A stretch of DNA of 64,000 nucleotides from an uncultured Thermoplasmata archaeon (GCA_964585175.1 CAZPCW010000001.1:12314-76313), one strand, 5' to 3'; counted from the first letter of the stretch, positions 2,370 to 45,145 are shown. Notes: generated by a model from the letters alone, not told the origin. Numbers and translations are program-made.

Positions 2370-2479
2370 ACTATCTTACATACATATCGTTCTTCTATAT
2401 TAAATTAATTTCCATCTTTCACGGCGAGAAATACTTTATAAGGATTGATAACCTTAAATATAAAAGGGAGTTCGGTGAT

Positions 2480-20014: not shown

Positions 20015-23000
20015 ATGGTAGACTTCGGAAAGTTGTTGGGAAAAGACAAAGATGAAGAAGAGGAAGATGAAGCCGAAGAAGAATCGGAAGGCGACATAGA
20101 TGATATTATAGACGGCGACGAAGGAGAGGGGGGGATGGGTCCGATGGGCGCGGATATGGACGAAGGTGAAGGTATCGGACCGCAGGGTGGTGGAGAAGGA
20201 GGTATGGGCGTGGCGCCCGACGTTAGGGACGATATTGACAGAAATAGAGATGACATCAGAGAAGTGGAAAATAAAGTAGAAACCATGAATGACACGGTAG
20301 ACGATATAGAGGAAAGAGTAAATGATCTTGAAGAAGATATAAGTCAATTATTAGATGTTTATGAGATGGTGACCGCTGAATTCAATCCTTTCTTAGAAGA
20401 AGGCGGCGGTTTAAGCGGAGGAGGTGGATCCTCTGAAGAAGGAGGCGGAGATGACTGGGATAGTATGGATTTCGGTGGATCACCTGAAGAAGAAAGCGAA
20501 GAAGAAAGTTCTGAAGGATCACCTCTTGATGAACTTGTAGAACCCCCTGAAGAGGAGCAAGAAGAGGAAGCGCCCGAAATGCCAGATATCGGATCCCCAG
20601 GTGAAGAAGAAGCCCCTGAAGCTCCGACGGAAACACCTCCTCAAGATCAATCTCAGGAACCAAAAAGTCCTGAACCCGCTCAGCCGGAGACCCCACAACA
20701 GCCTGCACAAGAACAACAGGCTCCACCTCAAACAGAACAAACCCAAGAACCCGTTCAACAACCCTCGACACAGCAAGAAGAATCTCAACAATCTCCTCAA
20801 CCCGCACAAGAACAGGTTCAGGAGCCTACCCAACAACCACAAACCCCTACCCAAGAACCTCAGCAACCGGCTCAAAAACAGCAAACCTCTCCACAGCAAC
20901 AACCAACACCTTCTCAAGAATCCAAACAACCGGCTCAAGAGCCTGAAAGGTCTACTGAACCTCAGCTATCTAAAGAACCAGGACCCGTCATGGAAGAGTC
21001 AGTTGAAACCATGGAAGAGGCACCAGGAGGTGAAATAACTGATGCCGAAGAACTACTAGATGAACTTGAAGGTGGGACTATGTATTTACTCGAATCTAGT
21101 GATGAGGATTTTCCATATGAAATATTTCAAGCTCTAGTTAAAGACAGATCTGGATTATGCCTAGTTAGAAACCACCCCGATGATATAAAAGACAATTATG
21201 ACATGACAGGAGTGGAATACGGGTGGCTTTCATCCTCTGGTGAAGACGTTGCTATTGGACCTGACGAATTAGATCTATTGGGCTTGACTATAGAGAGATT
21301 CATTTCGGAAGATGATGGAATAATACTCCTTGATGGGATTGGTTATCTTCTTTCGAACAATCCCGAATCTACTGTTATCCATTTCATACAATCCCTGCAG
21401 GATCAGATAACAGTCAAATCTACAATATTCTTGATCGTAGTCGATCCAGAGGATATGGAGCAGAAGAACATAGATCTGATCAAGAATGAACTTGATCTAG
21501 AAGTCAAAAAGAAAGAGGAGCTCTCTAAGGATACTGGAAGGAGCATCAGTGGAGGAGAAGAAAACCTAGTCTCAAAAGTAAGAAGAATGATGCAGTTCCT
21601 GGAAGAACAGGAGAAAAATCTTCAGGAGAGAGTCGATGAAATCAATCAGAAGACCATACCAGAATTTTCAGAGAGTATGGATTCGTCTGTAGTAAAAGAA
21701 GCTATCGAAGATCTGAAAAAAGAAAACAGAAGGCTTAAAGAGGAACTAGATAGATTGAAAGAAGAAGAATCGGAAGAGGAGATAGATACTTCTCCAGAAA
21801 GAGCTAAAGACATAAAGGAAACGATGGATCTATTCAAAGAAGAAAAAGAAACCCTTGAGGAGATAAAAGAACTTGAAGAGGAAGAAGAGGTGGAAGAAGA
21901 AGTCGGTGAAGAACCTTCTGCTATAATCGAAGCTATACAAGATCTCGAAGAAGAGATCGATAAGTTGAAGGATGAGATGAAAGAGCTCAAAGAAGGTGCT
22001 CCAGAAGAAAGTGAAATTGTCGAAAAAGAAGAAACTATAGAGGGTATTGATGAAAGTTTGAAAGGAGAAACGGAAGTTGAAGTGGAACCAGAACCTGAAC
22101 AGGAAATCAAAATCGAAGAACCAGAAGAATCAGTTGAAGAGGAATCGATGGATGAAATCACCGATATACCCGGAAATATAGACGAAAAAGTCGATGTTGA
22201 AATCGAGGAAGAAACAGGAATAGAAGAAGAAAAAGAAGCTGAGGAATCGGGTCTTCCGGAAATAGAAGAAGAGGAAACTGAAGAGCTCGAAGTAGAAGAA
22301 CCGGGGATGGAAGAATCAGAAGCGGAAGAAAACAAAGAGGAAAAAACGGTTGAAGAAAAAAGCGAAGAAAAACCAGAAGAAGAAACTTCCATCTTGAAGG
22401 AAATGATACAGGGTCTAGAAAAAGAAATAGATGGTCTAAGGAACGAAATCCAGGATCTAAAACAGGGTGAAGAGGAAACTGAAGCTATTGGTGAAGAAAC
22501 CGGCGAGAAGATTGAAGAGATCGAGGAAAAAGATCTAGCGAGTGAAGCAGCAGAGAAAGCTGGTGAGATCGTTGAAGAGGTAGAAGAAGAGCTGGGCGAA
22601 GATATGGTCGATGAGGATGTACAGGAGGAAAGCGAAGAGGAAGAAAAAGAGATGGAAGAAGTGATGGAAGTGATCGAAAAGGAAGAACAATTGATGGAAG
22701 AACCTGAAAAAGTTAAAGAAAAAGTAGGATCTGAGGAAGTGGAAAGCCCAGTCCAGACTGAAGGATCAGAAGAAGAGAAAGAAGAGGAACTCGAATCGGA
22801 TCATTTAACTGAAGACGCTGAAAAAGGGATTGAAGAGGACAAAGAAGTGATGCCAGAGCGCGAAGAGCCGATAGAGGAAAGTGAGAAAGAGACAGAAGAT
22901 AAAGAAATAGAGCCCGAAAAGAAAGAGGAAACAGTCGAGGAGCCAAAAATAGATGAAAAAGAAGAAGGAACTATCTATTCTGAGGAAGAAATACAGTTAG

Positions 23001-23458
23001 AGCCAGAGTCGGAGATATCTGGTGATATAGCATCTGATAGTGATGTCCAGATCGAGAAAGATGTGAAAGTTGACGGATCTTTGAGTGCAGAAGAGGATAT
23101 CAAAATACACGAAAAAACTGAGATACAGGGAGATATAAAATCTGATTCTGGTGACGTAAATATAGGTGAAGAGTGTAAGGTGGGAGGAGAGATCAATGGA
23201 AAGAAAGTGTTAATCTCTAAAGGAAGTGAAGTGGAAGATATTGAAGCAGAAGAAAAAGTGATCTTGGAAGAAAATACGAAAGTGAATAAAGTTTTGTGTG
23301 AAGGTGACGTGAAGCTGTCAGAAAACGTCCAGATCGAAGAAGGAATTGAGTACGGTGGCCAATTACTATTTGAAGGAGATAAGATAAGTATCGGTGATCT
23401 GGTTCATCCGATAAATGAAGACGAAGAGGTGGTGAAAGAAAGATGGGCTTCTCAGTAG
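20015..23458 (+). CDS. Giant acidic multidomain protein: ArlC/D/E-like N-terminus, PQ-rich linker, DUF835-like (KaiC-lobe-like) domain, a long Glu-rich coiled coil of about 450 aa, and a bactofilin-like beta-helical C-terminus
   Basis: It occupies the position of arlCDE, between the archaellin-like gene and arlF. N-terminal coiled coil ending LLDVYEMVTAEFNPF, which I read as ArlD/E-family-like. A P/Q/E low-complexity block around 20580-20990. Block GLCLVRNHPDDIKDNYDMTGVEYGWLSSSGEDVAIGPDELDLLGLTIERFISEDDGIILLDGIGYLLSNNPESTVIHFIQSLQDQITVKSTIFLIVVDP, which I read as DUF835-like. An extremely E/K-rich region with heptad-like periodicity. C-terminal 150 aa built from the repeat D/E-V-x-I-x-G-D-I/V (SGDIASDSDVQIEKDVKVDGSLSAEEDIKIHEKTEIQGDIKSDSGDVNIGEECKVGGEINGKKVLISKGSEVEDIE...), which is bactofilin-like. 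The 3' end overlaps the arlF start by 16 nt. Confidence 0.55.
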   Translation: MVDFGKLLGKDKDEEEEDEAEEESEGDIDDIIDGDEGEGGMGPMGADMDEGEGIGPQGGGEGGMGVAPDVRDDIDRNRDDIREVENKVETMNDTVDDIEERVNDLEEDISQLLDVYEMVTAEFNPFLEEGGGLSGGGGSSEEGGGDDWDSMDFGGSPEEESEEESSEGSPLDELVEPPEEEQEEEAPEMPDIGSPGEEEAPEAPTETPPQDQSQEPKSPEPAQPETPQQPAQEQQAPPQTEQTQEPVQQPSTQQEESQQSPQPAQEQVQEPTQQPQTPTQEPQQPAQKQQTSPQQQPTPSQESKQPAQEPERSTEPQLSKEPGPVMEESVETMEEAPGGEITDAEELLDELEGGTMYLLESSDEDFPYEIFQALVKDRSGLCLVRNHPDDIKDNYDMTGVEYGWLSSSGEDVAIGPDELDLLGLTIERFISEDDGIILLDGIGYLLSNNPESTVIHFIQSLQDQITVKSTIFLIVVDPEDMEQKNIDLIKNELDLEVKKKEELSKDTGRSISGGEENLVSKVRRMMQFLEEQEKNLQERVDEINQKTIPEFSESMDSSVVKEAIEDLKKENRRLKEELDRLKEEESEEEIDTSPERAKDIKETMDLFKEEKETLEEIKELEEEEEVEEEVGEEPSAIIEAIQDLEEEIDKLKDEMKELKEGAPEESEIVEKEETIEGIDESLKGETEVEVEPEPEQEIKIEEPEESVEEESMDEITDIPGNIDEKVDVEIEEETGIEEEKEAEESGLPEIEEEETEELEVEEPGMEESEAEENKEEKTVEEKSEEKPEEETSILKEMIQGLEKEIDGLRNEIQDLKQGEEETEAIGEETGEKIEEIEEKDLASEAAEKAGEIVEEVEEELGEDMVDEDVQEESEEEEKEMEEVMEVIEKEEQLMEEPEKVKEKVGSEEVESPVQTEGSEEEKEEELESDHLTEDAEKGIEEDKEVMPEREEPIEESEKETEDKEIEPEKKEETVEEPKIDEKEEGTIYSEEEIQLEPESEISGDIASDSDVQIEKDVKVDGSLSAEEDIKIHEKTEIQGDIKSDSGDVNIGEECKVGGEINGKKVLISKGSEVEDIEAEEKVILEENTKVNKVLCEGDVKLSENVQIEEGIEYGGQLLFEGDKISIGDLVHPINEDEEVVKERWASQ

Positions 23459-25810: not shown

Positions 25811-27460
25811 ATGTCTCCCGTACAGCAGCATGAAAGTTCATTGGCGCAAGCTAGAAAGAGGAACCCGCACCTTAATGAATATATCAAGGGGCTACAAAGT
25901 AGAGGCATCGACGTTCCTGTATTGAAAAATAGGGTGGATAGAGATCTAAAAGATCAAAACGAAGTGAATATAATATATCCTATAGGTGATCCTATCTTCG
26001 TCCACGTTTATGGGACCGAGAACAGTGGATACAATTACAACGGGATAGAACCTGAATTAGATACTGAAAGCAGGGAACTCCTTCAAGAAATACAGGATTT
26101 TATCTTTGAAAAAGCTGCTTTTGAAGACGTAAAAGACGATCCAGAAAAATTAAAAGATCTTATCGAAGAATCCGTTGAGGAATTCGTCGATAAGGAAACC
26201 AGTGGACTATTATTCAGCAGGGATATACCAAAAGAGAGGGTGAGAAGAGTAAAATACAGACTGATGAGAGATCTGGCTGATCTAGGACCTCTTGAACCTC
26301 TTATGAGAGATCCTTATATAGAAGATATTTACGTAGTTGGTTTAGAACCTATCAAACTCATCCATAAGATATTCGATGAGATGAAGACTAATCTACAATT
26401 CGAGACAATGGAGAAGCTCGATGAATATCTAGTCAATCTAGGGGATAGAGTCGACGTGGATGTGAACGCTTCGGATGCTGTATTTGACACTGCAATGCCA
26501 GATGGATCTAGACTTAATATAATATATCCCGAAGATATTTCGATAAAAGGACCCAGTTTTACGATAAGAAAGTTCGAAGAGACACCTCTTACAATGCCAC
26601 AGATAATTAAGTGGAATACATTCAGTCCGAGGATGGGTGCATACATGTGGCTAGCCATGGAGCATGGCATGTCTGTCATCGTTTCCGGAGAGACAGCTTC
26701 GGGTAAAACTACTACTTTTAACTCAATGTTACCATTCATTCCTCATAACAATAAGGTTTACTCGGTTGAAGATACGGCAGAAGTCCAACCCCCTCAAGAG
26801 ACTTGGCAGCAGATGATAATCAAAGAATCGGAAGACGAGCAGATATCTGTCGAATACTTTGACCTTATAAAGGCCGCTATGAGGAGTAGACCAGAGGCTC
26901 TCCTTGTGGGAGAGATCAGAGGTGAAGAAGGTAATATCGCTTTCCAGGCCATGCAGACCGGTGTACCCGTCATCTCCACTTTCCACGCAGCTTCAGTCCA
27001 CAAGTTAATACAGAGGATGAGTGGAGAACCGATAAACGTTCCTTTACACTTTTTCCCGAATCTTGATTTCGTCGTTATACAGCAGGCGGTTTATGTTGGT
27101 GGTGAATTTCTGAGAAGGATGTTAGCTCTAACCGAGATAACCGGTTACCTGAGAGAAGAAGACAGCGTAGAGGTCCGAGAGATATTTGGATGGGATCCTG
27201 TCAGTGACAGTTTCGACTTTAGAGGAAAATTTAACAGTCAGCTTTTAGAAGAAAAGATAGCTCCAAGGATGGGTTTTGATGATAAAAGAGACATATATTT
27301 GGAGCTGGAAAAAAGAGCCCAGATAATCAAAAACATGATCAGAGAAGATATATTGGGTTATGATGAGGTAATAGAGACACTAAGAAAATGGCATAGAGGA
27401 GGTATGGAATCTCTGCCTCCCCGTTTAAGAGTAAAAGATTCCCAGGTTAGCATAAAATAA
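25811..27460 (+). CDS. arlI: ArlI (FlaI) archaellum motor ATPase (type II/IV secretion ATPase family)
   Basis: Walker A motif SGETASGKTTTFNSMLPFIP, Asp box, His box (STFHAAS) and an N-terminal FlaI-specific domain. It lies immediately upstream of arlJ. Confidence 0.85.
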   Translation: MSPVQQHESSLAQARKRNPHLNEYIKGLQSRGIDVPVLKNRVDRDLKDQNEVNIIYPIGDPIFVHVYGTENSGYNYNGIEPELDTESRELLQEIQDFIFEKAAFEDVKDDPEKLKDLIEESVEEFVDKETSGLLFSRDIPKERVRRVKYRLMRDLADLGPLEPLMRDPYIEDIYVVGLEPIKLIHKIFDEMKTNLQFETMEKLDEYLVNLGDRVDVDVNASDAVFDTAMPDGSRLNIIYPEDISIKGPSFTIRKFEETPLTMPQIIKWNTFSPRMGAYMWLAMEHGMSVIVSGETASGKTTTFNSMLPFIPHNNKVYSVEDTAEVQPPQETWQQMIIKESEDEQISVEYFDLIKAAMRSRPEALLVGEIRGEEGNIAFQAMQTGVPVISTFHAASVHKLIQRMSGEPINVPLHFFPNLDFVVIQQAVYVGGEFLRRMLALTEITGYLREEDSVEVREIFGWDPVSDSFDFRGKFNSQLLEEKIAPRMGFDDKRDIYLELEKRAQIIKNMIREDILGYDEVIETLRKWHRGGMESLPPRLRVKDSQVSIK

Positions 27461-27475
27461 GTAATATGGGATAAT

Positions 27476-29134
27476 ATGGATATAGAAATATTAGAACATT
27501 ACCAGAAGATGGAGATGTCCTTTAGGGATTACATACTTGGAGGTTTACTTCCATCTATAGTTCTATTTATCCTTATTGTTTTCTTCCCTAGTTTGATATT
27601 TCCCGAAATCCTTCTAGAAGGATTCTTGATGTTTTTTACTCAATATGTTCTTCCTACGGTGATTCTAGTTCTAGCTATACTTTTCCCCATAATTATTAGA
27701 AAATTGAAAAAGGAGGAAATCGATTCTTATCTTCATCTATTTATCACATTCTTTTATGCGTTATCCACTTCTGCCGTATCTGAAGCGAGGATGATAAAAA
27801 AGCTCTCGGAAGTCGACGAATACGAATCTTTGGCAGATGAGATTAAAAAGGTCTATAGTAGAATGGAATACTGGGATATGCCTTTACCTGAAGCGGCGAG
27901 GGACGTTGCGGATGAAACACCCAGTGAAAGGTTATCAGACTTTTTAACCAGGCTCGCCCACTCGCAGGAAGCCGGAGAGAACATGACTACCTTTCTCGAA
28001 AAAGAGCATTCTGTAGTTATGAAGGATTATGAAACAGAGTATAGATCCGCACTCGAGACGCTCGATCTACTGAAGGAAGTCTTTATCGCACTGATGACTT
28101 CGACTCTATTTCTTTTAGTCTTCCTGAGCATCCTTCCGATCTTTAGCGGTACTTCGGCGATGCTGCTTTTAACGGGAGGATTAGTTGTATTCATAATAAC
28201 GGAGGTGATCATGGCCGTAGCCGTAAAAACCGTCATGCCAAATGATCCCATTTGGCATCAATTAAATAGAAGACCTCCTCTGACGAGTAAGCTAAAAAAA
28301 GTAATACCCGCCTGTGTAGTGGGAGCTGTAGTACTTTTCTTTGTATTGGTATCCTACATACAATTAGATATATTTTGGATAGTCGCTATTTCACTGAGTC
28401 CTTTCATAGCCCCGGGTTTGATGATATATTTCTCTGAAAAGGAATTGAAAAGGTCTGATAATAACTACGATGCGTTCATGAGAGCTATAGCGAGTAGTAT
28501 CGCGATGAAAGGAGGAAGTGTAGAGAACGCTTTACAAAAACTGAGGCAGTACGATTTCGGACCACTAACTGAAGAGATCGAAAAACTATACAAAAGGTTG
28601 CTGACTAGGATCGACGAAGAAAAAGCTTGGAGATTTTTCGCTTCTGGTACTGGAAGCAATCTTATAGCCACTTTTACGAACATATATAACGGTTCGACAG
28701 ATTTAGGTGCCAATGTCAGAGATGTCAGCGATATAATCTCAGACACGTTCGTTAGAATCCTTTCTTTGAGAAAAGATAGATATCAGCAGGCTTCCGGCAT
28801 GATAGGGATCTTTTATGGGTTGGGCCTTGGTGCCGCACTGACTCTTACTTTGACCTTGAACATATCGGTTATGATGAACGATTCGATCGGGATGGTCACT
28901 CAAACATCAGAATTTTCAAACATTCTGCACCAAGTTCAATACAGCCCTCAGATGATCCAAATATTTATCCTGGCTGCGATACTTGTACACGCCATATTTG
29001 CTTCTCTCTCTTTGGTGATGTCTGCAGGTAGTCATAAGCTGTCGATCCTTTACCACACCGTAGGTATGACCTGGATAGGAGTCGTTTCCTCTTTGATCGC
29101 TCGTTCGGTAATGAGCGGACTTATTGGGGTGTGA
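27476..29134 (+). CDS. arlJ: ArlJ (FlaJ) archaellum platform membrane protein (TadC/GspF family)
   Basis: 552 aa, polytopic (multiple long hydrophobic segments), two cytoplasmic domains. Its position after arlI is canonical. Confidence 0.75.
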   Translation: MDIEILEHYQKMEMSFRDYILGGLLPSIVLFILIVFFPSLIFPEILLEGFLMFFTQYVLPTVILVLAILFPIIIRKLKKEEIDSYLHLFITFFYALSTSAVSEARMIKKLSEVDEYESLADEIKKVYSRMEYWDMPLPEAARDVADETPSERLSDFLTRLAHSQEAGENMTTFLEKEHSVVMKDYETEYRSALETLDLLKEVFIALMTSTLFLLVFLSILPIFSGTSAMLLLTGGLVVFIITEVIMAVAVKTVMPNDPIWHQLNRRPPLTSKLKKVIPACVVGAVVLFFVLVSYIQLDIFWIVAISLSPFIAPGLMIYFSEKELKRSDNNYDAFMRAIASSIAMKGGSVENALQKLRQYDFGPLTEEIEKLYKRLLTRIDEEKAWRFFASGTGSNLIATFTNIYNGSTDLGANVRDVSDIISDTFVRILSLRKDRYQQASGMIGIFYGLGLGAALTLTLTLNISVMMNDSIGMVTQTSEFSNILHQVQYSPQMIQIFILAAILVHAIFASLSLVMSAGSHKLSILYHTVGMTWIGVVSSLIARSVMSGLIGV

Positions 29135-29140
29135 TCATAG

Positions 29141-30751
29141 ATGGAGAGGAAGTTAAAAGCCCATATGAAAAAAAATCCCTTTTTAGGGAGCTACATAAAA
29201 AGGGTCAGAAGAGAAGTAGGTGTGCCAAAATTTAGAGAGGAATGTCCAGATTGGGGAGACGTGAGGGATGATTTCAATATAATGTATCCCATAACAGATC
29301 TAGTTTATATCCATTGTTACGTTTCCGAGGACGAAGAGAAGCATTATATCGCGGTAGAACCCCCACTAAATGAAGAAAGGCAGGAAAAACTTGAGAAGGC
29401 TAAGAAGTATATCTATAGAGAGGCGGATTACGAGAAGGAGATCGAATACAGAGAAGAATTGAGGGAAATGATCCATGATATTTTTGACAGGATCGTGGGT
29501 GAAGGAGGAGGTTTCTTTTCGAAACTCCAAGGTAGGACATTAGACGTAGATGATGATGAGATACCTATCTTGAAATATTATGTTGTGAGAGACCTAGTAG
29601 ATTATGGAGTTCTTGATCCACTGATCAACGATCCTAATATCGAAGATATAAATTGTGTGGGAACAGAGCCTCTTACTATTATTCACCAAACATTTGGAAG
29701 GATAAAAACGAACATCTCATTTGACTCTGAATTTGAATTAGATGAATATCTGAAAAGACTAAGCCAAAGAATAGGCAGTCCGGTCGGTGAAGCTCATCCC
29801 ATCGTGGATACGGCTATGCCGGACGGATCTAGAATAAACATCGTTTATCCAGAAGATGTTTCTACCAAAGGCAGATCATTCACGATACGAAAATTTCCAG
29901 ATGATCCTATCTCTATAACCAATCTTATTGAATGGAATACTTTATCCCCAGAATTGGCTGGATATATATGGCTCTGTTTGGAAAACTCCATGTCCATCTT
30001 CATATGCGGAGAAACAGCTTCGGGTAAAACAACTACTCTGAACGCTTTTCTCCCTTTCATACACCTTGATAGTAAACTTTACAGCGTGGAAGACACCCCT
30101 GAAGTGCAGCCACCACACGATAATTGGCAGCAACTCATAGTCAGAGAAGAGGGAGCAGAAGATGAGCAGGTCGGTCAGTTCGATCTTTTGAGAGCAGCCC
30201 TCCGTTCAAGGCCAGATTATATAGTTCCCAGTGAGATAAGAGGAGAAGAAGGTAGAGTGGCGTTTCAGGGCATGCAGACAGGCCATCCTGTCATATCGAC
30301 TTTCCATGCCGACTCCATACACAGGATGATCCAGCGACTAACCGGCGAGCCTATCAGGATCCCGATAACTTTCATAGATAATCTGAACGTAGCGGTGATA
30401 CAAGACAGCTTTAGAACCAAAGGGGCCGTTTTGAGAAGAGTAACTGAGGTTGGAGAGATCATGGGTTACTCTGAAGAACAGGATGGAGTGATGATGAGGG
30501 TGGTATTCAAAAGAAATGAACAGGAAGATGAGCTGGAATTCGAAGGTATGTACAACAGCTTTATTCTAGAGGATAAGATCGCACAGATCCAAGGTTACGA
30601 CGATACTAGAAAAATCTACGATGTGATGGAAGAAAGAGCCCAGTTCTTAGAAGATCTCACGAGAAAAGGTATCTACGATTACGATAAGGTGGCGCAGCTG
30701 ATAGACGAATACAGGAAAGGCGGTAGAGAAAATCTTTCAATAAGGCTTTAA
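29141..30751 (+). CDS. Second ArlI/FlaI-like secretion-family ATPase (paralog)
   Basis: Walker A motif CGETASGKTTTLNAFLPFI, His box STFHADS, and the same domain order as ArlI (about 45% identity by eye: MYPITDLVYIHCY against IYPIGDPIFVHVY). It sits 7 nt after arlJ with no adjacent second TadC-like gene. Confidence 0.7.
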   Translation: MERKLKAHMKKNPFLGSYIKRVRREVGVPKFREECPDWGDVRDDFNIMYPITDLVYIHCYVSEDEEKHYIAVEPPLNEERQEKLEKAKKYIYREADYEKEIEYREELREMIHDIFDRIVGEGGGFFSKLQGRTLDVDDDEIPILKYYVVRDLVDYGVLDPLINDPNIEDINCVGTEPLTIIHQTFGRIKTNISFDSEFELDEYLKRLSQRIGSPVGEAHPIVDTAMPDGSRINIVYPEDVSTKGRSFTIRKFPDDPISITNLIEWNTLSPELAGYIWLCLENSMSIFICGETASGKTTTLNAFLPFIHLDSKLYSVEDTPEVQPPHDNWQQLIVREEGAEDEQVGQFDLLRAALRSRPDYIVPSEIRGEEGRVAFQGMQTGHPVISTFHADSIHRMIQRLTGEPIRIPITFIDNLNVAVIQDSFRTKGAVLRRVTEVGEIMGYSEEQDGVMMRVVFKRNEQEDELEFEGMYNSFILEDKIAQIQGYDDTRKIYDVMEERAQFLEDLTRKGIYDYDKVAQLIDEYRKGGRENLSIRL

Positions 30752-30775: not shown

Positions 30776-31651
30776 TCATTTATTATATTGATTTTCTAAG
30801 TAATTTATATTAGAATAGATATCTTCAATACGAGCTTCAGTCAAACCGATCAAAGGTCGTAAAATCAGAGTGTCTATTTCTTTTTTAGAGAAATTTGGTA
30901 ATCTTTCTCCGAGAACTATCGCCTCGATCTCTTCGGGCAGATCCTTATCTAGCATCTCCTTTAAACTAGAAACTTCTTCCTTTCTCAGATTCGGATCCCA
31001 TCTCTCTAATTTATTACCCCACTTAGGATCGCTAAAATAAACGTATGGTCTCGCACCTCTTTTCATCATCAACCATGTTGCGATTAAATCCGTTCTATCA
31101 TCTACATATGCGGCTACTTTACCCTGAGAACTTAAAGGCAAACCGCCTGGTCCATTTTTCCCGTTCTTGATTATATATGCCCTGTTGTGTCTTATCTCTA
31201 TTTTGAACTTGTGATCAGGTTCATCTAGGTTTACTTCTAACTCCGGATTTTCTTTTAGAATCAAGGCCCCTAGCTCTTCTTCTATATCTTGGCTACCAAA
31301 TTCGTGATCTCCTACCCTTTTGACTCTGACAGCGAATTGACCGTCGATATCATCTGCAAATCTTTCAGCTTCTTCTTTGATTTTTCTTAAATCCGCTTCG
31401 ATAGATTCTATTTCTTCACATTTACTATAAGAGACGACTCCGAATATTCTAGAGAAGAATCCGGCGTTTTTTTCCTGCGTATAAGCAAATATCCTTCCAT
31501 GATGGCGTCCCTCCACAATCACTTCTTTATCTCTAGAAAGAAAAGTTCTCTCTATGTTTTGTATCAATATATTTTTAAAATCCTTACGAATCCTAGGGCT
31601 TTTCGTTCCGAGTTCTCCGTAACGAATCAGATATAACTGAAAATCACTCAT
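30776..31651 (-). CDS. ThiI-like THUMP-domain protein with a degenerate PP-loop (short paralog of tRNA 4-thiouridine synthase)
   Basis: N-terminal ferredoxin-like plus THUMP region (LIRYGELGTKSPRIRKDFKNILIQNI). The C-terminal half aligns to the ThiI adenylation domain (LMMKRGARPYVYF, LILRPLIGLTE). At the SGGxDS PP-loop position the nucleotides at 31090-31140 read GKVAAYVDDRTDLIA. Only 291 aa. Confidence 0.55.
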   Translation of the reverse strand: MSDFQLYLIRYGELGTKSPRIRKDFKNILIQNIERTFLSRDKEVIVEGRHHGRIFAYTQEKNAGFFSRIFGVVSYSKCEEIESIEADLRKIKEEAERFADDIDGQFAVRVKRVGDHEFGSQDIEEELGALILKENPELEVNLDEPDHKFKIEIRHNRAYIIKNGKNGPGGLPLSSQGKVAAYVDDRTDLIATWLMMKRGARPYVYFSDPKWGNKLERWDPNLRKEEVSSLKEMLDKDLPEEIEAIVLGERLPNFSKKEIDTLILRPLIGLTEARIEDIYSNINYLENQYNK

Positions 31652-31670: not shown

Positions 31671-32192
31671 TCACCAGCTGCCTTCGTGTATCAATTCTTC
31701 TGCACTCATCTTTTCAGGAGAAGTTGGTTCTTCTGTCGGATACCCGACAGGTATCATTGTTACCGGTCTAACTCCCGCAGGAATTTTAAGCTGATCCGCC
31801 ACTTTTTCTTCCTCAAAGGCCCCTACCCAAACTGCGGCATAACCTTTGTCGACTACGGCTAAGAGCATATTTTCTACCGCAGCGCTAGCGTCCTGTATAG
31901 AATACAGTTCTCTTCCTCTATCTCCATATCTTTCCGCAGATCTTTCTTTATTGGCACAAACCACTATCACCCATGCAGCTTCGCCGATAAACGATTGCCC
32001 GTGAGCATTTTTTACTAACTTTTGCTTTTCTTTCTCATCTCCAACGAGAATAAAATCTCTAGCCTGAAGATTACCAGCGGAAGGGGCCATATGTCCCAGC
32101 TCGATGATCTCTTCGATATCCTCTTTAGGAATATCTTTTTCTTTGAAACTCCTCACGCTTCGTCTCTTCTTGACCACTTCCCTAAACTCCAT
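31671..32192 (-). CDS. Nitroreductase-family NAD(P)H-flavin oxidoreductase
   Basis: RRSVRSFKEKDIPKEDIEEIIELGHMAPSAGNLQARDFILV. The likely start is MEFREV at 32190-32192, which abuts the flavodoxin stop; the track start at 32240 is over-extended. Confidence 0.7.
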   Translation of the reverse strand: MEFREVVKKRRSVRSFKEKDIPKEDIEEIIELGHMAPSAGNLQARDFILVGDEKEKQKLVKNAHGQSFIGEAAWVIVVCANKERSAERYGDRGRELYSIQDASAAVENMLLAVVDKGYAAVWVGAFEEEKVADQLKIPAGVRPVTMIPVGYPTEEPTSPEKMSAEELIHEGSW

Positions 32193-32194
32193 TT

Positions 32195-32686
32195 CTAGAC
32201 CTCCAAACCCGATATTTTTTCCATAAATTCGGCCATCCATTCACCGTAATAACGGCATTGTTTGAGTTCGTTTTCGTCGGGATCACCGATCACTACGGGA
32301 CCGTAGTGATCTCCTTTAGGCATGCCTTTTACTATCATCCCGTGTATGATCAAGCTTTCTAGAAGCGCCATGATAGTGGTTTCGTTTCCTCCGGCGGTAT
32401 TAGCGCTAGAGGTGAAGGCGCCACCTACGATTCCATCAAGATCTCCGTGATGAGTTATACTTTCATCCAAAAATTCCTTCATTTCAGCACTGGGAAGTCC
32501 GTAATAAGTGGGAGATCCGAGTATAATACAGTCGTATTCAGGCAGAGACTCTACGTCAGCTTCTTCGACTGACTTCAAATCTATCTCAATAGAGGCGTCG
32601 CTTTCTTCCGCACCCTCAACTATCTTTTCGGCCATTTCTTCAGTCGTACCACCCTTCGAATAATAACAGACTAACATCTTCGACAT
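32195..32686 (-). CDS. Flavodoxin-like FMN-binding protein
   Basis: MSKMLVCYYSKGGTTEEMAEKIVEGAEE matches the flavodoxin phosphate-binding loop (S/T-x-T-G-x-T). 163 aa. Confidence 0.65.
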   Translation of the reverse strand: MSKMLVCYYSKGGTTEEMAEKIVEGAEESDASIEIDLKSVEEADVESLPEYDCIILGSPTYYGLPSAEMKEFLDESITHHGDLDGIVGGAFTSSANTAGGNETTIMALLESLIIHGMIVKGMPKGDHYGPVVIGDPDENELKQCRYYGEWMAEFMEKISGLEV

Positions 32687-32744
32687 ATTATCGAATTCAT
32701 ATAGTTCTCTCGTTTAATATGTTTTGCTTCCCTCGTATTTCGGA

Positions 32745-33740
32745 TCACTCTTCTCTTTTTTTCTCCTCAAGTTCACAAAGTAGATCAACTATTTCCTCGG
32801 ATTTTTCCTTTTCTAGGGAGACCTCTTCATCATAAAACCCAGATTTTTTTTCTCCCACAAATTGACCGATATTAGTCAATTTTAGGATTATATCCTCTGT
32901 TTTGATCACCTTTTTTTCTTCCAACCTCGTGATAATGCTTTTAAACCTCTCCAAATCCAGGTTGAGGGTCTCAGCTATCTTAGTAGCCAAAAATTGGTTA
33001 CCGCTCTCAAGAGAATTCAAAATTTTTACGACTTTCAATTCCTTTTGATTTAAAGTAGGGATCTTTTGTTCTTCTCTCAAGAAGCAACTCTCAAAGTACT
33101 GTAAAATCATCGAGACTGAAGTATTGACGGGATATATCACATCCACTATCACTTCATCTTCGTTCTCGTTTTCCCCGTCTTCGTAATATATTTTTAAAGA
33201 GTTTTTACCCTTCAGTTCCTCAGTAGCCACGAACAAAATCTTCTTTCGGGGGATCGCTAAAAGTCTATTGTCTTCTCCAAGTATCTGAACGTGCTCTGTA
33301 CCCTTACCTCTATATTTTCCTTCTTTCCATTCTTTATCCTTATTTACCTTTTCTCCGACTTGATATTTTGTTATGTAATTAATCTTGGCACCCGACATTA
33401 TTTGCCTTAAAATAGTTCTTTTAAGCTTTCTTTTAGAAGAAGTTTTTATCAACGCTAGATATCCGCCGTCGGAGGTCATGAAATTAAATGTCAATACGTT
33501 GTGTTCCCTAGCTTTCAAAAAGTTTATCTGACGATCGAGGTAAAAAATTGAGTTCAATTCGATCCTTTTGGTCTCTTCCTTCGTTTCATATATAAGTTTA
33601 TCTGGGGTGAGATATATCTTGGAAGGTGTCCATTCTTTTTCTTTGTAAAAATCCTCTTCAACTTCATTGATAGTTCCCGCAGGTATGATCGCTTGTACTT
33701 CCTCCTCAAACTGAACATTTCTTCTACCTATATTAAACAC
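32745..33740 (-). CDS. CheF-like protein (archaea-specific che/archaellum adaptor family, DUF439-like), paralog A
   Basis: Co-linear homology with the two tandem genes at 38957 and 39880: AIIPAG..., (K)IYLT/YLVYK, LIKTS.K..LKRTIL, ...KDKEW.KG, IYYED/IRYEKDDEE, and a C-terminal winged-helix-like region. It is co-operonic with a PAS-HK, a REC and a CheB-methylesterase domain protein. Confidence 0.5.
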   Translation of the reverse strand: MFNIGRRNVQFEEEVQAIIPAGTINEVEEDFYKEKEWTPSKIYLTPDKLIYETKEETKRIELNSIFYLDRQINFLKAREHNVLTFNFMTSDGGYLALIKTSSKRKLKRTILRQIMSGAKINYITKYQVGEKVNKDKEWKEGKYRGKGTEHVQILGEDNRLLAIPRKKILFVATEELKGKNSLKIYYEDGENENEDEVIVDVIYPVNTSVSMILQYFESCFLREEQKIPTLNQKELKVVKILNSLESGNQFLATKIAETLNLDLERFKSIITRLEEKKVIKTEDIILKLTNIGQFVGEKKSGFYDEEVSLEKEKSEEIVDLLCELEEKKREE

Positions 33741-33747
33741 CTCAGAA

Positions 33748-34320
33748 TCACTTCTTAAACAATTCTATAAGTTTAGCTCTGATACCTTCGGGTTTTAAGA
33801 TAAACTCCACACTGCCGGTATCTATAGCACCCTCGGGCATATGTGATATTATCGCGGAAGAGACTTTTTGTGCTATAGTGGTGCCTCCAATGCTGTCTAT
33901 ATGCTCAATACCTTCGATACCGTCATGCCCTATCCCGCTCAGTAAGATGCCTACATACTCATGATCCTTTTTTATATCTAAACTTTTCATCACCCCGTCT
34001 ATAGAAGGACAAGCAAAACTTTCTTTAGGACATTTGGAAAAAGAAATTTTAGAGTTATCTTTTATATCGAGTTGCTTTTTCGAAGGTGCAATATAGATCG
34101 TTCCGCTTGACAAGCGTTCGTCCTCCGCAAGTTTCACTTCCATTTTCGTGAGACTGTTGATCCTTTTTACCATACCTTCGTTTAGCTGTTTAGACATGTG
34201 CTGAACGATTATTATAGCCGCGTCTAACTCGGGCAGATGGGAGAATATAACTTTTAAAGCGTTGGGTCCCCCAGTCCCGGAACCTATAACTACTATATTT
34301 TTGCACAATTCAGACGACAT
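33748..34320 (-). CDS. Standalone CheB-type methylesterase catalytic domain (no receiver domain)
   Basis: VVIGSGTGGPNALKVIFSHLPELDAAIIIVQHMSKQL, IYIAP, CPSIDGVM, LSGIGHDGIEGIEHIDSIGGTTIAQ. The Ser-His-Asp triad positions are present. 190 aa. Confidence 0.75.
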   Translation of the reverse strand: MSSELCKNIVVIGSGTGGPNALKVIFSHLPELDAAIIIVQHMSKQLNEGMVKRINSLTKMEVKLAEDERLSSGTIYIAPSKKQLDIKDNSKISFSKCPKESFACPSIDGVMKSLDIKKDHEYVGILLSGIGHDGIEGIEHIDSIGGTTIAQKVSSAIISHMPEGAIDTGSVEFILKPEGIRAKLIELFKK

Positions 34321-38956: not shown

Positions 38957-39826
38957 ATGGGAAAACAAAACGTACTGTATAACCAAGTAGAAAAGGCGAT
39001 AATACCCGCCGCAGAAGGTGATCGATACTTTAGAAATAAAGACTGGATCAAAACAACTGTTGCAGTAACTGGAGAATATCTAGTCTATAAAAATTCGGAA
39101 GGCGAAGGTTCGATTCCATTGAATGAAATCTACTATATGGATAGAAAAGTGGGCTACTCGAAAGCTCAAGGGGGAGCTGTTCTCAATTTCAATTATAAGC
39201 AGAATGGAGAAACTTATATGGGGTTGATAAAGACGTCCCATAAAGATTACTTGAAGAGAACTATACTTATTGCAACTATTTCGAATATTCCCATCTATTT
39301 TATTTCTCCCTACCAGAGCGGAGGAAGGATTCATACCGATAAAGAATGGAAAAAAGGAATTTTTCAGGTGACTAAGAACAAGGTCATAATTAAATCTCCA
39401 AACGGTTCGGTGGTTAATGAAATACCCGAGAGAAAAATATTCGGTGAAAGTGAGGATAAAATTAAGGGATACGATGCCATAAAGATCAGATACGAGAAAG
39501 ATGACGAGGAATTAGCTGATCTGATGTTCTCGCCGGAAGTTTCATTGGCTATACTGAGCGATTTCTTTTCTGAAGTTCTGATGAAGAAAAAGGGTAAAAA
39601 AAGAAAACTTTCAGAAGATGAAAAAGAAATCATGATGGCTATCCAGACGGGGATCAATTCTTCCACCGAAATAGCCGAATTGATGGAGATGGATCACGAA
39701 GATGTATTAAACTCTATAGACACGCTAAAGGATAAGAACGTGATAAATATAGTCGGAAGAGAAAAAATAGTCGAGTTAAGTTCAGAAGGAAAACAGGCTT
39801 TAGATGATTCAGGCGAATCGATGTGA
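38957..39826 (+). CDS. CheF-like protein (DUF439-like), paralog B
   Basis: Same family as 32745 and 39880. Directly upstream of cheW-cheR and facing cheA-cheB. Confidence 0.55.
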   Translation: MGKQNVLYNQVEKAIIPAAEGDRYFRNKDWIKTTVAVTGEYLVYKNSEGEGSIPLNEIYYMDRKVGYSKAQGGAVLNFNYKQNGETYMGLIKTSHKDYLKRTILIATISNIPIYFISPYQSGGRIHTDKEWKKGIFQVTKNKVIIKSPNGSVVNEIPERKIFGESEDKIKGYDAIKIRYEKDDEELADLMFSPEVSLAILSDFFSEVLMKKKGKKRKLSEDEKEIMMAIQTGINSSTEIAELMEMDHEDVLNSIDTLKDKNVINIVGREKIVELSSEGKQALDDSGESM

Positions 39827-39879: not shown

Positions 39880-40743
39880 ATGGCTCAAGATCAATTGTAT
39901 AACAATGTTGACGAAGCGATAATACCAGCTGGACAAGGAGGAAAGATCAAGGGGAATTTAAGCTGGGAGAAGACAAGGATAGTGATCACCAGTAAATACT
40001 TGATATACAAAGGGATGAATTCTGAGGGTTACATACCACTCAACAATATATTTAATATGGATAAAAAATTAGATTTTCAAAAAGGAAAGGGAAAAAATAT
40101 ACTTAACTTCTTTTATACAAAAGACGAAAAAAACTATTTCGGTCTGATCAGATCTAATCAGAAGAGTTATCTAAAAAGGAGTGTTTTGGTCGCATCGATC
40201 TCGAGTATACCCATCTACTACATATCTCCTTATCGGGTTGGGGGAAGGATTAACACTAGTAAAGAATGGGAACGAGGTATTTTGGAAATAAATCCAAGAT
40301 CTATGAAGATAAAAAATGTGGGAGAAGAATTAGTAAACGAATTATCCGAGGATGATATATATAGAATAGATTCTGACAAGGTAAAAGGTCATGATGCGGT
40401 AAAGATAAGCTACGAGAAAAACGAAGAAGAATTCACCGATCTCCTTTATTCTCCGGGTATTTCTCTCTCGATCCTTTACGATTATTTCGAAGAAATTTTG
40501 ATAGGAAAAGACGTTACGGATATAACTATCTCTGAACTGGAAAAGGAGATGATCTTGGCGATCGAAAGTGGTATCAACTCGTCTAAAGAACTCTCGGATC
40601 TGATCGAAAGTGACCATGAAAAGGTCTTAAATAGCTTGAAAAGATTGAAGGAAAAAGGGTTAATAGAAGAGATAGGCATAGATAAGATTGTTGATCTCAC
40701 ATCTCAAGGTAAAAAGAAGATAGGCGATTCGATAGAAAGGTGA
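39880..40743 (+). CDS. CheF-like protein (DUF439-like), paralog C
   Basis: About 45% identical to paralog B along the whole length. C-terminal wHTH-like block EKEMILAIESGINSSKELSDLIESDHEKVLNSLKRLKEKGLI. Confidence 0.55.
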   Translation: MAQDQLYNNVDEAIIPAGQGGKIKGNLSWEKTRIVITSKYLIYKGMNSEGYIPLNNIFNMDKKLDFQKGKGKNILNFFYTKDEKNYFGLIRSNQKSYLKRSVLVASISSIPIYYISPYRVGGRINTSKEWERGILEINPRSMKIKNVGEELVNELSEDDIYRIDSDKVKGHDAVKISYEKNEEEFTDLLYSPGISLSILYDYFEEILIGKDVTDITISELEKEMILAIESGINSSKELSDLIESDHEKVLNSLKRLKEKGLIEEIGIDKIVDLTSQGKKKIGDSIER

Positions 40744-42130: not shown

Positions 42131-44096
42131 TCTTTATCCAGTGAAGCGTGTCGAGTATCATCGCTATAGTACCGTCTCCAAGTATCGTTGCCCCCATGAA
42201 TCCTCCGAGACCCTGAAGATGTTCCGGCAGCGGTTTTATAACTATCTCCTTTTCGGTTAGGACGTCGTCTATAACTAGACCGGCGGTCTTTCCTTCTTTG
42301 GAAACGATCGAGACTTTTAGCTTTTCTTTTTCCTCTTTTATAGAACTCGCAGGATATCCTTCAAACTCCTCTTGCAGATAGATAAGAGGTAAATATTCAT
42401 CCCTGATTTTCACGAAATCATTTCCTTTGATTTTTTCTATCTGCTCCAAATCGACCTGAGCAGTTTCAACTACGTCTTCTAAAGGTACAGCGTAAGTACC
42501 GTCTCCGACCTTAATCAGGAATGCCTGAACTATTGCCACCGAAGGAGGTAATGTCAATCTGATAGTTGTACCTTCATCGATCTCTGACTCAACGTTTACT
42601 TCTCCACCAAGAGAATCCATGGTTTTCTTAACCACTTCCATGCCAACTCCTCTTCCAGAGACTTTAGTAACCTCGTCTTTGGTGGAGAAATGGGAATTGA
42701 ATATAAACATGTATAAATCTTCATCTGATATTTCTTCAGCTTCTTCTTCGTCTATAAGATCATTATCGATGGCCTTTTCCTTGATCTTCTCTTTATTCAA
42801 TCCTCGACCGTCATCGCTTACTTCTATTACAACGTTCTCCTCTTTTTGGGTCGCGGCTAGTTTGATCTTACCTTTTTTTGGCTTTCCCTTCTTTTCTCTT
42901 TCTTCTACAGGCTCAATACCATGATCTATAGCGTTCCTCAAAAGATGAACTAAAGGATCGGTTATTCGGTCGAGAATGGTTCTATCCAGCTCTATTTCTT
43001 CACCCTGCATTTCGAAATCGACCTTTTTATTATTCTCCTTAGCAAGATCTCTCACCATCCTCGGGAAGCGTCTAAAGACGGTCTTGACTTCCGTCATCTT
43101 CATGTCTAGGACCGATTCTCTCAACTCGCTGGATATCCTGTCTATTCTCCCGGTCACATTAGAAAGTCTATCCGATTCCAAAGAGCGAGAAAGATCTTCC
43201 AAAGTACCTTTTGAAATAACTAATTCACTTACTAGGTTCATTATATGTTCGATATCTTCTAGGTCTACCTTTATCTTGTCCGATGTCGAAATCTTTTTTT
43301 CCTTCTTTTTCTTTTTTTCCTTTTTTTCTTCGGTTTCTTCTTCCTTTTCTGGTTTTTCTACCCCCTTCTTTTGCTTTAGGAGACCTTCTCCAGCTCCTCT
43401 TCTTACTTCGATTGTTAACCCGGCTGTTTTATCTAAATCTTTTTCTTCTATCTCTTCTTCAGTCACGATATAAAACTGGTTATGCTGTGGATCTACTTCA
43501 TCAGGATCGGGATAGAACATTTCACATTCAAAATCTAACTTTTCTTGGACCTCCATGCCTCTAACAGCGGGCAGCTTTTCCTCTTGAGAAACTTCCAATA
43601 TACCTAAGGAGATCTCTTCCTCTGCTTTTTCTTTTAATTTCTCTTGCACTTCGTCTGGGACATCTATCTCTTCTATTTCTTCAGACTCTTCGACTTCAAC
43701 CTCTTCTTCAGTGCTCCCCTCTTCCTTTGTAACTTCACCTCCTTCTATTAGCTCGTTGAGCTCATTTACCAAATGGCCATAATCTTCGTCTTCTCCGCTA
43801 GCGAGTATTTCTATGGTGTCAACACATTCAAAAAGAAGATCGAAAAGCTCTTCCTCTACCTTACCCCCTTCGCCCTTCAACTTATCAAAAAGTTCCTCCA
43901 TCCTATGACTTATCTTCTGGATACCGTCATAACCCATTGTGCCCGCCATACCCTTCAAAGTATGGCTGGCTCTATAGATTTCTTCTATCAATTCGATATC
44001 CTTCGGATCATCTTCCAATGCCAAAAGATTCTCATTCATCTTTTCAATTTGTTCTCTTGTCTCTTCTTCAAACATTTCTTGATATTCTTCACTCAT
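42120..44096 (-). CDS. cheA: Chemotaxis histidine kinase CheA
   Basis: Hpt P1 with H-box ASHTLKGMAGTMG, a dimerisation domain, HATPase_c (VIEVSDDGRGLNKEKI...STKDEVTKVSGRGVGMEVVKK) and a C-terminal CheW-like P5 (DGTYAVPLEDVVE...AGLVIDDVLTEKEIVIKPL). Confidence 0.9.
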   Translation of the reverse strand: MSEEYQEMFEEETREQIEKMNENLLALEDDPKDIELIEEIYRASHTLKGMAGTMGYDGIQKISHRMEELFDKLKGEGGKVEEELFDLLFECVDTIEILASGEDEDYGHLVNELNELIEGGEVTKEEGSTEEEVEVEESEEIEEIDVPDEVQEKLKEKAEEEISLGILEVSQEEKLPAVRGMEVQEKLDFECEMFYPDPDEVDPQHNQFYIVTEEEIEEKDLDKTAGLTIEVRRGAGEGLLKQKKGVEKPEKEEETEEKKEKKKKKEKKISTSDKIKVDLEDIEHIMNLVSELVISKGTLEDLSRSLESDRLSNVTGRIDRISSELRESVLDMKMTEVKTVFRRFPRMVRDLAKENNKKVDFEMQGEEIELDRTILDRITDPLVHLLRNAIDHGIEPVEEREKKGKPKKGKIKLAATQKEENVVIEVSDDGRGLNKEKIKEKAIDNDLIDEEEAEEISDEDLYMFIFNSHFSTKDEVTKVSGRGVGMEVVKKTMDSLGGEVNVESEIDEGTTIRLTLPPSVAIVQAFLIKVGDGTYAVPLEDVVETAQVDLEQIEKIKGNDFVKIRDEYLPLIYLQEEFEGYPASSIKEEKEKLKVSIVSKEGKTAGLVIDDVLTEKEIVIKPLPEHLQGLGGFMGATILGDGTIAMILDTLHWIKTTS

Positions 44097-45145
44097 TATT
44101 TCTCCTCCATAAACATATCAACCAATTTCTTTCCAATTTCAGAAGGTGTTCCTTCAAAATCAGGAGTTGTTTTATTTTTCGCAGATTTAGGCATCCCATA
44201 TACAACGGAACTCTCTTCATCTTGGAGGGCAAGAAAACCATCGTTATCTTTTACTATTTTAGCTCCGGTAGCTCCATCCTTTCCCATTCCAGTCAAAACT
44301 ACCCCAATAACTTTATCCCGATATACTTCGGCGGCGGATTGGAAAAGATAATCCGCAGAGGGTCTAACGCCGTGTAATTTGGGTTTTTTCTTGAGGACTA
44401 TAGATTTCTCTTCATTCCATTCTCTTACCATTCCATGATAGTCCGAAGGGATTATGTAGATATTATTAGGTTCGATATTATCATGATCTTTAGCCTCCCT
44501 AACTGGGAGCTCAAGTTTTGAATTCAATGTAGAAGCTAGATATTCGGTAAAATCAGGGGGCATATGCTGGACTACAACGATAGGAACAGGGAAATTAGAG
44601 GGTAGATTAGATAGTAAGCTGTCTAAAGCTCTCGTCCCGCCTGTGGATGAAGCTATAGTGATAATATTATCTTTAAATTTTTCTGGGACGAATTCCTTTT
44701 CTATCGGCTTTCCCTTTTCCAACTCCAAAGATTCCATATCGGTCTTTCCAGCATTGATAACTTTTTGAGTGATCTCGTCTGATTTCTTCCTGATATCCAT
44801 CGATAAAGAACCAGATGTCTTTGGGATGAAATCCACAGCTCCCGCTTCTAGAGCCTTCACTGACATCCCAGTCTTCTTATCTTCCATCGCGGAAACTATA
44901 ACGACTGGTGTAGGATTGTCGGACATGATTTTTTTTACGGCGGTGAGCCCGTCCATCACGGGCATCTCGATGTCCATTAATATGACATCAGGATCTTTCT
45001 CTCTGTTAAGTTCTATAGCTTCTTCACCGTTACCACCAGTGCCTACTACTTCTATCTGTTCATTCTCTTCAAGTATGTCTGTTAATATGGTAACCATGAA
45101 ATTCGAATCATCTACTACGACAGCGCTGATTTTACTTGAAGTCAT
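44096..45145 (-). CDS. cheB: Chemotaxis methylesterase CheB (REC plus methylesterase)
   Basis: N-terminal receiver (VVVDDSNFMV...DVILMDIEMPVMDGL) and C-terminal esterase (IASSTGGTRALDSLLSNLP, VVVQHMPPDF, LTGMGKDGATG). Its stop overlaps the cheA start. Confidence 0.9.
   Translation of the reverse strand: MTSSKISAVVVDDSNFMVTILTDILEENEQIEVVGTGGNGEEAIELNREKDPDVILMDIEMPVMDGLTAVKKIMSDNPTPVVIVSAMEDKKTGMSVKALEAGAVDFIPKTSGSLSMDIRKKSDEITQKVINAGKTDMESLELEKGKPIEKEFVPEKFKDNIITIASSTGGTRALDSLLSNLPSNFPVPIVVVQHMPPDFTEYLASTLNSKLELPVREAKDHDNIEPNNIYIIPSDYHGMVREWNEEKSIVLKKKPKLHGVRPSADYLFQSAAEVYRDKVIGVVLTGMGKDGATGAKIVKDNDGFLALQDEESSVVYGMPKSAKNKTTPDFEGTPSEIGKKLVDMFMEEK

Follow-up and report, generated by a model that had tools for sequence, protein, structure and literature searches.

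A short ThiI-like protein family of Thermoplasmatota that has lost the PP-loop and conserves its tRNA-binding half

A ThiI-like gene at the end of a three-gene block

The window analysed here, a 64-kb stretch of DNA (64,000 nucleotides) from an uncultured Thermoplasmata archaeon, carries on its minus strand a ThiI-like gene (30776..31651) encoding a protein of 291 aa, which is made up of a ferredoxin-like domain at the N-terminus (NFLD), a THUMP domain and a vestigial PP-loop-domain core. The frame is intact from its ATG start, and alignment places both the start and the stop at the same positions as in orthologues. The NFLD spans residues 7–76 (31424..31633, minus strand; PF22025 (ThiI_fer), E 8e-12) and the THUMP domain residues 86–160 (31172..31396, minus strand; PF02926, E 1.5e-13). 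A GPGGLP linker (residues 167–172; 31136..31153, minus strand) leads from the THUMP domain to a C-terminal domain, a shortened alpha/beta domain corresponding to the PP-loop-domain core (residues 176–291; 30779..31126, minus strand). Within this domain, alignments place VDDRTDL (residues 183–189; 31085..31105, minus strand) at the former position of the PP-loop, and the motifs LMMKRG (residues 194–199, window 31055–31072) and RPLIG (residues 265–269, window 30845–30859) could be read directly from the sequence. The THUMP domain, these two motifs and the length of 291 aa had been named in an original prediction, and all were borne out by Pfam searches and by the sequence.

Two genes lie upstream on the same strand. 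A nitroreductase-family gene (31671..32192, minus strand; 173 aa; PF00881, E 2e-32) ends 19 nt before the ThiI-like start codon, and a gap of 2 nt separates it from the first gene of the block, which encodes a WrbA-like short flavodoxin (32195..32686, minus strand; 163 aa) matched by the Pfam flavodoxin and FMN_red models. The best PDB match of the flavodoxin is 2ark, followed by WrbA proteins. A chemotaxis cluster borders the three-gene block on one side and a convergent archaellum operon on the other. An A/T-rich element, ATATTAAA (32700..32715, minus strand), was read from the sequence around 20–25 nt upstream of the ATG that starts the flavodoxin gene and is a candidate TATA box, of the archaeal type, for a three-gene transcript; a promoter and terminator scan of the window with bacterial-type models, which are not suited to archaea, returned nothing above background.

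The catalytic elements of ThiI are missing

The curated ThiI models match the protein below their cutoffs: the NCBIfam equivalog TIGR00342 scored 127.8 bits against a cutoff of 264.5 and covered residues 8–201 only, and PF02568, the model of the ThiI PP-loop domain, scored 16 bits against a cutoff of 20.5, over residues 256–283. The SGGIDS of canonical ThiI is replaced by V183-D-D-R-T-D188. HMMER set S182-G-G-I-D-S187 of Thermotoga maritima ThiI opposite D184-D-R-T-D-L189, and MAFFT placed 'DDR-TD' at the SGGxDS position with a one-residue deletion. Both methods thus upheld the predicted substitution of VDDRTD for SGGxDS, give or take one position in the register.

The losses go beyond those in the original prediction. 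Alignments indicated that the protein also lacks the CxxC-bearing insert (around 30 aa), the GxSLGQVASQT dimer-interface and ATP loop, and the C-terminal 70–100 or so residues that form the Cys-bearing subdomain of ThiI, and that the segment containing R264 and M267 (T. maritima numbering) is deleted or replaced. In the structure of T. maritima ThiI with RNA and ATP, the nucleotide is held by S182–S187, R264, M267 and the G286–Q295 loop, and C344 is needed for catalysis (PMC4041423). Every one of these ATP-contacting and catalytic residues falls inside a segment that the ThiI-like protein has lost. Compared with ThiI/TtuI enzymes (TIGR00342; 4KR6 and 2C5S; the Methanococcus maripaludis and Pyrococcus furiosus [4Fe-4S] TtuI proteins), to which its NFLD, THUMP domain, linker and third-domain core are homologous, the protein therefore has no PP-loop, no ATP elements, no catalytic Cys (the Cys344 equivalent), no CxxC+C ligands for a [4Fe-4S] cluster and no rhodanese domain. 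Its single cysteine, Cys78, is not conserved, and many orthologues have no cysteine at all. We found no conserved new motif at the old active site, where the residues at the PP-loop position differ from member to member.

A still-active 4-thiouridine synthetase with an unconventional loop would account for the retained hallmarks MMKRG, RPLIG and GPGGLP and for the 'ThiI' label that relatives carry in many databases. We consider such activity very unlikely, as every ATP-contacting element is gone together with the catalytic Cys and the CxxC, the replacement loop varies within the family, and the curated ThiI models stay below cutoff.

The tRNA-binding half is conserved

The domains that bind tRNA in ThiI have fared differently. 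Alignment columns of the NFLD include an invariant loop, R10-Y-G-E-x-G-x-K17, and an invariant G52-R53, and in T. maritima ThiI the loops equivalent to these positions touch RNA (PMC4041423). In the THUMP domain, the conserved residues F106, R112, S120, G128, V140, L142 and P145 correspond to the 3'-CCA-binding groove, as mapped by HMMER alignment to the contacts of T. maritima ThiI (PMC4041423). The full set of RNA-contact residues kept comprises R10, K17, basic residues at 20 and 22, R49 and G52-R53, and, further on in the THUMP domain, F106, R112, G128-A129, V140, L142 and P145; in our alignment these NFLD and THUMP contact positions are invariant in short and canonical proteins. The GPGGLP linker is likewise invariant, or nearly so, in the short family and in canonical ThiI, and the C-terminal domain keeps Q176, G177, W193, M196-K-R-G199, L215, W218, P266-L267 and G269 family-wide, most of these positions being common to canonical ThiI as well.

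With the family alignment as input, AF2 gave a confident model (pLDDT 92.4, pTM 0.88), whose NFLD and THUMP domain superpose on ThiI structures. Together, the alignments support the view that the protein is a ThiI-derived scaffold from which the nucleotide-binding motif has gone and in which the tRNA-binding half is fully conserved. We reasonably infer that a dead ThiI scaffold may have been reused here as a tRNA-binding protein.

A large and conserved family

A first homology search returned around 60 orthologues of 280–302 aa and 44–68% identity, none of them with PF02568, whose named sources were Thermoplasmatota metagenome-assembled genomes (MAGs) of Natronoplasma and Saliniplasma. More distant short relatives followed, and then canonical ThiIs at around 34% identity. 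A scan of species-representative genomes identified at least 590 relatives, and SGGxDS was present in 0 of the 80 best loci. These relatives come from Halarchaeoplasmatales-type lineages, Methanomassiliicoccales, Sysuiplasma and other Thermoplasmata, with a few on contigs labelled Aenigmatarchaeota or Halobacteriales. Finally, when 1.84 billion cluster representatives (50% identity) were searched with a profile, there were 1396 matches at E<=1e-30; among the best 150 of the 1396, 126 were short proteins without the PP-loop, 22 were longer and had no canonical PP-loop, and 2 had one.

Conservation extends over the whole protein, with a mean pairwise identity in the close clade of 0.49 in the C-terminal domain, 0.51 in the THUMP domain and 0.62 in the NFLD. 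Judged from these comparisons, the short family is old, widespread and under purifying selection in Thermoplasmatota. The C-terminal domain, being under such selection itself, could have an unrecognised ligand or active site. There is hardly any chance, in our view, that the gene is decaying into a pseudogene or has been called too short: it is around 70–100 residues shorter than ThiI, but its frame is intact, its length equals that of dozens of orthologues, its C-terminal domain is conserved family-wide and its fold is predicted with confidence. The original prediction of an inactivated tRNA-binding scaffold thus stood with respect to the lost motif and the conserved tRNA half, but what it had read as a feature of this genome belongs to a widespread conserved family.

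The longer ORFs were also examined for fusion partners, and none proved to be a fusion: some extend by read-through from upstream, and the others are full-length homologues of ThiI whose PP-loops are degenerate. The latter (around 355–390 aa; L049, L058, L069, L073, L077, L084, P0066 and P0067) have 'GDC[GNS]S', 'KDLHS', 'DDV-ES' or 'SGNADC' as PP-loops and mostly keep the CxxC insert and the C-terminus, with P0066 lacking the CxxC. The contigs of L049, L058, L069, L073 and L077 are labelled Aenigmatarchaeota/Nanobdellati and that of L084 Halobacteriales. By sequence, these full-length degenerate homologues look like steps on the way from canonical ThiI to the short form. A further contig labelled 'Candidatus Aenigmatarchaeota' (L012, JBKHKA010000024.1) has a ThiI-like gene 59% identical to that of the window and the same flavodoxin–nitroreductase–amidohydrolase block as Natronoplasma MAGs, and is probably mis-binned or mislabelled.

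PH1313 and a probable repeated reduction of ThiI

A Foldseek search with the AF2 model ranked PH1313 (1VBK) at the top (TM 0.80, E 5e-24), ahead of T. maritima and Bacillus anthracis ThiI and then other THUMP enzymes. The family profile aligned to PH1313 end-to-end (E 2e-54) and to canonical ThiI only in part. No function has been assigned to PH1313 since 2005. PH1313-type proteins and the window protein alike consist of an NFLD, a THUMP domain and a shortened PP-loop-type domain, have around 300 aa and lack the PP-loop; they differ in that the window protein is 27% identical to PH1313, which is without the WDPNL-type motif. In the 1VBK crystal, PH1313 is a homodimer. [quoted passage not shown] It is the sole characterised relative of this architecture, and our family comparison found no known active subfamily with the VDDRTD loop. 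PP-loop-less ThiI-like proteins were, then, already known from one crystal structure, and the window family is a separate lineage of them.

To place PH1313, we searched with its own sequence. Its nearest relatives are short proteins of Pyrococcus and Palaeococcus ferrophilus, and it is 50–56% identical over its full length to canonical 380-aa Thermococcales ThiIs (Thermococcus siculi and Palaeococcus pacificus). The canonical Thermococcus and P. pacificus ThiIs matched in this way retain SGGIDS, CxxC, GDSLGQVASQT and the C-terminus. The window protein, by alignment (A3), is around 27–31% identical to PH1313-type short forms and to canonical Thermococcales ThiIs. On this pattern, PH1313-type proteins arose inside the Thermococcales ThiI lineage. 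Because PH1313 is 50–56% identical to Thermococcales ThiI and only 27% identical to the window protein, the same reduction of ThiI was probably independent in Thermoplasmatota and Thermococcales. A single origin of all short forms was set aside, with the identity pattern against it and bootstrap values that were weak or absent: in a crude neighbour-joining (NJ) tree, all short forms grouped as one clade in 18 of 40 bootstraps with all columns and in 0 of 40 with the N-terminal half. The case for repeated origin draws mainly on the identity pattern.

The short form of P. ferrophilus (P0133) has 'SGP-NS' at the PP-loop position and is 61.6% identical to canonical T. siculi ThiI versus 57% to PH1313. 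The genus Palaeococcus has both forms, the short P0133 in P. ferrophilus and a canonical 381-aa ThiI (P0228) in P. pacificus, which are 58% identical, and within Thermococcales, too, truncation may thus have occurred more than once. Methanofastidiosia, in which short forms (P0236 and P0238) occur beside a canonical protein (P0237), may be a further case. ThiI has probably been reduced independently, then, in at least two lineages, perhaps three: Thermoplasmatota, Thermococcales and perhaps Methanofastidiosia. In each of them the outcome is one and the same inert scaffold of NFLD, THUMP and mini-domain. Parallel losses in the Thermococcales lineage, and a reduction that was probably repeated, argue for a real, selectable non-enzymatic function as opposed to decay.

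The short Pyrococcus proteins P0121–P0128, which lack the PP-loop, are named 'tRNA 4-thiouridine(8) synthase ThiI' in NCBI and UniRef, which is probably over-annotation. Many members of the class are mislabelled 'tRNA 4-thiouridine synthase ThiI', so the capacity for s4U8 may be over-predicted in these archaea, and short ThiI-like genes are not to be taken as evidence of s4U8 synthesis.

A flavoprotein block in the halophilic clade

In the halophilic clade, the genes of the block follow one order on one strand: flavodoxin, an optional nitroreductase in the middle, an optional amidohydrolase (Amidohydro_2) and the ThiI-like gene last. This order holds, in four layouts, at every close-clade locus that has upstream DNA (around 30 species representatives). 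The amidohydrolase gene is absent from the block of the window; where present in L008 and L010, it overlaps the ThiI-like gene by 4 bp. The flanks of the block vary, with archaellum and che genes in some loci and S17e–Pcc1 or histone deacetylase in others. A tight, conserved block with overlapping genes suggests selection for co-expression, and a tight operon with flavoproteins and an amidohydrolase could mean that the ThiI-like protein is part of an enzyme system and not a passive binder.

Outside this clade the association is not seen. None of 53 more distant family loci has such neighbours, and ribosomal protein L15e mostly adjoins the gene there; the neighbours at distant loci, mainly L15e, a DNA-polymerase-sized gene and a GTPase, form a housekeeping context with no clue to a partner. 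The flavodoxin has homologues of 55–65% identity in MSBL1, Hadarchaeia and Planctomycetota, all in unrelated contexts, and we rejected the idea that it is an operon-specific protein, given the unrelated neighbours of these close homologues. The neighbours were also examined as candidate tRNA enzymes, and PDB, NCBIfam and Pfam searches identified them only as generic WrbA/flavodoxin, nitroreductase and Amidohydro_2 proteins. The flavodoxin operon is a weak clue to the function of the ThiI-like protein, because it is restricted to one clade, its genes are generic and the homologues of its flavodoxin lie in unrelated contexts.

These data bear on whether the protein might be a tRNA-targeting subunit, with the ThiI ruler delivering nucleotide 8 or 9 to a separate catalytic partner. 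The flavodoxin, the nitroreductase and the amidohydrolase would be the candidates, in a redox or hydrolytic modification or de-modification of, for example, s4U8 or C8. Tan1/THUMPD1 with NAT10 would be one analogue and CDAT8 (3G8Q) another. CDAT8, a Methanopyrus tRNA C8 deaminase with a THUMP domain and one of the structural matches of the ThiI-like model, has a THUMP module that aims a hydrolytic enzyme at nucleotide 8; its catalytic domain is fused and active, whereas the ThiI-like protein has only a vestigial domain attached and would need a hydrolase encoded separately. Retention of the block in around 30 species representatives despite differing flanks, the tight spacing of its genes (2 and 19 nt in the window, 4-bp overlaps in L008 and L010) and the precedent of non-catalytic THUMP partners (PMC9957541) all favour a targeting role. 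However, the link is limited to one clade and missing from the 53 distant loci, the nitroreductase and the amidohydrolase are each dispensable (the window itself has no amidohydrolase), the flavodoxin is generic and none of the three neighbours has a tRNA-related feature, and we regard a targeting role as unlikely. The more specific proposal of a tRNA-presenting subunit for an unknown nucleotide-8/9 enzyme, with the co-transcribed flavoprotein and/or amidohydrolase as its partner in halophilic Thermoplasmatota, is a long shot; if true, it would imply a new flavin-dependent or hydrolytic system of tRNA modification or de-modification.

Proposed function of the ThiI-like protein

On balance, and with only modest confidence, we favour the reading that the protein is a non-catalytic descendant of ThiI/TtuI that acts as a tRNA-binding, tRNA-presenting or chaperone subunit. 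It keeps the NFLD and THUMP domain, with which ThiI grips the acceptor stem and 3'-CCA of a tRNA and, like a ruler, points at nucleotide 8. Also kept are the linker and, from the former PP-loop domain, its core sheet. Gone are the PP-loop and the remaining segments that touch ATP, along with the CxxC/[4Fe-4S] insert and the tail that bears the catalytic cysteine, so that the protein would neither adenylate U8 nor transfer sulfur. The conserved contact residues suggest that tRNA would still be bound by its acceptor end, and the protein is probably dimeric, like ThiI and PH1313. As a functional model we favour, by analogy, Tan1/THUMPD1, an NFLD+THUMP protein that serves the tRNA acetyltransferase Kre33/NAT10 as a non-catalytic partner (PMC9957541). 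Tan1/THUMPD1-like proteins share with the ThiI-like protein a THUMP domain without a working catalytic domain; unlike it, Tan1 lacks a third domain and does not derive from ThiI.

A different role for a dead subunit would be to partner or regulate, as a pseudoenzyme, a genuine ThiI whose gene lies elsewhere in the genome, either donating tRNA binding in a heterodimer or titrating substrate. In the ThiI dimer, the THUMP domain and NFLD of one subunit present tRNA to the other's active site (PMC4041423); P. furiosus has both a short PP-loop-less protein (P0127) and an active [4Fe-4S] TtuI, PF1288 (PMC9825150), and Thermoplasma species possess a canonical TtuI with a rhodanese domain. Against such pairing, no canonical ThiI is encoded within 10 kb of 90 family loci or in the 64-kb window, where tblastn with six ThiIs detected the ThiI-like gene only, and no separately encoded PP-loop domain of ThiI type was found near family members at the 90 loci. 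Moreover, deletions have removed the dimer-interface loop and a large part of the domain that forms the interface, and the nearest canonical ThiIs are around 34% identical, making specific heterodimers less likely. We consider a partnership with ThiI improbable and retain the non-catalytic tRNA-binding subunit as the preferred reading.

For 20 years, truncated ThiI-like proteins without a PP-loop, as represented by PH1313, have stood as an orphan of structural genomics that lacks an explanation. To this our analysis adds that the class is large and conserved and dominates the ThiI homologues recovered from Thermoplasmatota, and that one clade ties the gene into a small flavoprotein operon. The function of the class is now more open to experiment.

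Other genes in the window

The original prediction had coupled the ThiI-like gene with an IleRS-like gene as two dead enzyme scaffolds in a reduced genome. The IleRS-like ORF (3-2375, minus strand; PF00133 and Anticodon_1), which is cut by the start of the window and has 791 aa visible, is highly diverged, aligning to IleRS structures along its whole length with only 193 bits. Where IleRS has HIGH, the ORF has 'FQIKDEFSWDD', and in place of KMSKS it has 'GIDYKNVKG'; both class-I signature motifs are absent, in agreement with the view that it is dead. A reduced genome, by contrast, is not suggested by the gene content of the window, which includes a full archaellum operon, a large chemotaxis set (CheA/W/R/B/Y and three CheF paralogues), an ABC transporter among its transporters, peptidases and FtsZ. 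Scans of the 64-kb window for tRNAs and Rfam families gave no match.

The archaellum accessory genes are headed by one that encodes a 1147-aa protein with FlaC_arch, DUF835 and bactofilin domains (20015-23458, plus strand). The archaellum operon has two FlaI-like T2SSE ATPase genes (25811-27460 and 29141-30751, plus strand) with a FlaJ-like T2SSF gene (27476-29134) between them, and the same FlaI–FlaJ–FlaI arrangement is present in L001 and L010. The chemotaxis region encodes two CheB-type methylesterases, one without a receiver domain (33748-34320) and one with it (44096-45145), and the three CheF paralogues (32745-33740, minus strand; 38957-39826 and 39880-40743, plus strand), the first of which has an extra winged-helix-like C-terminal part.
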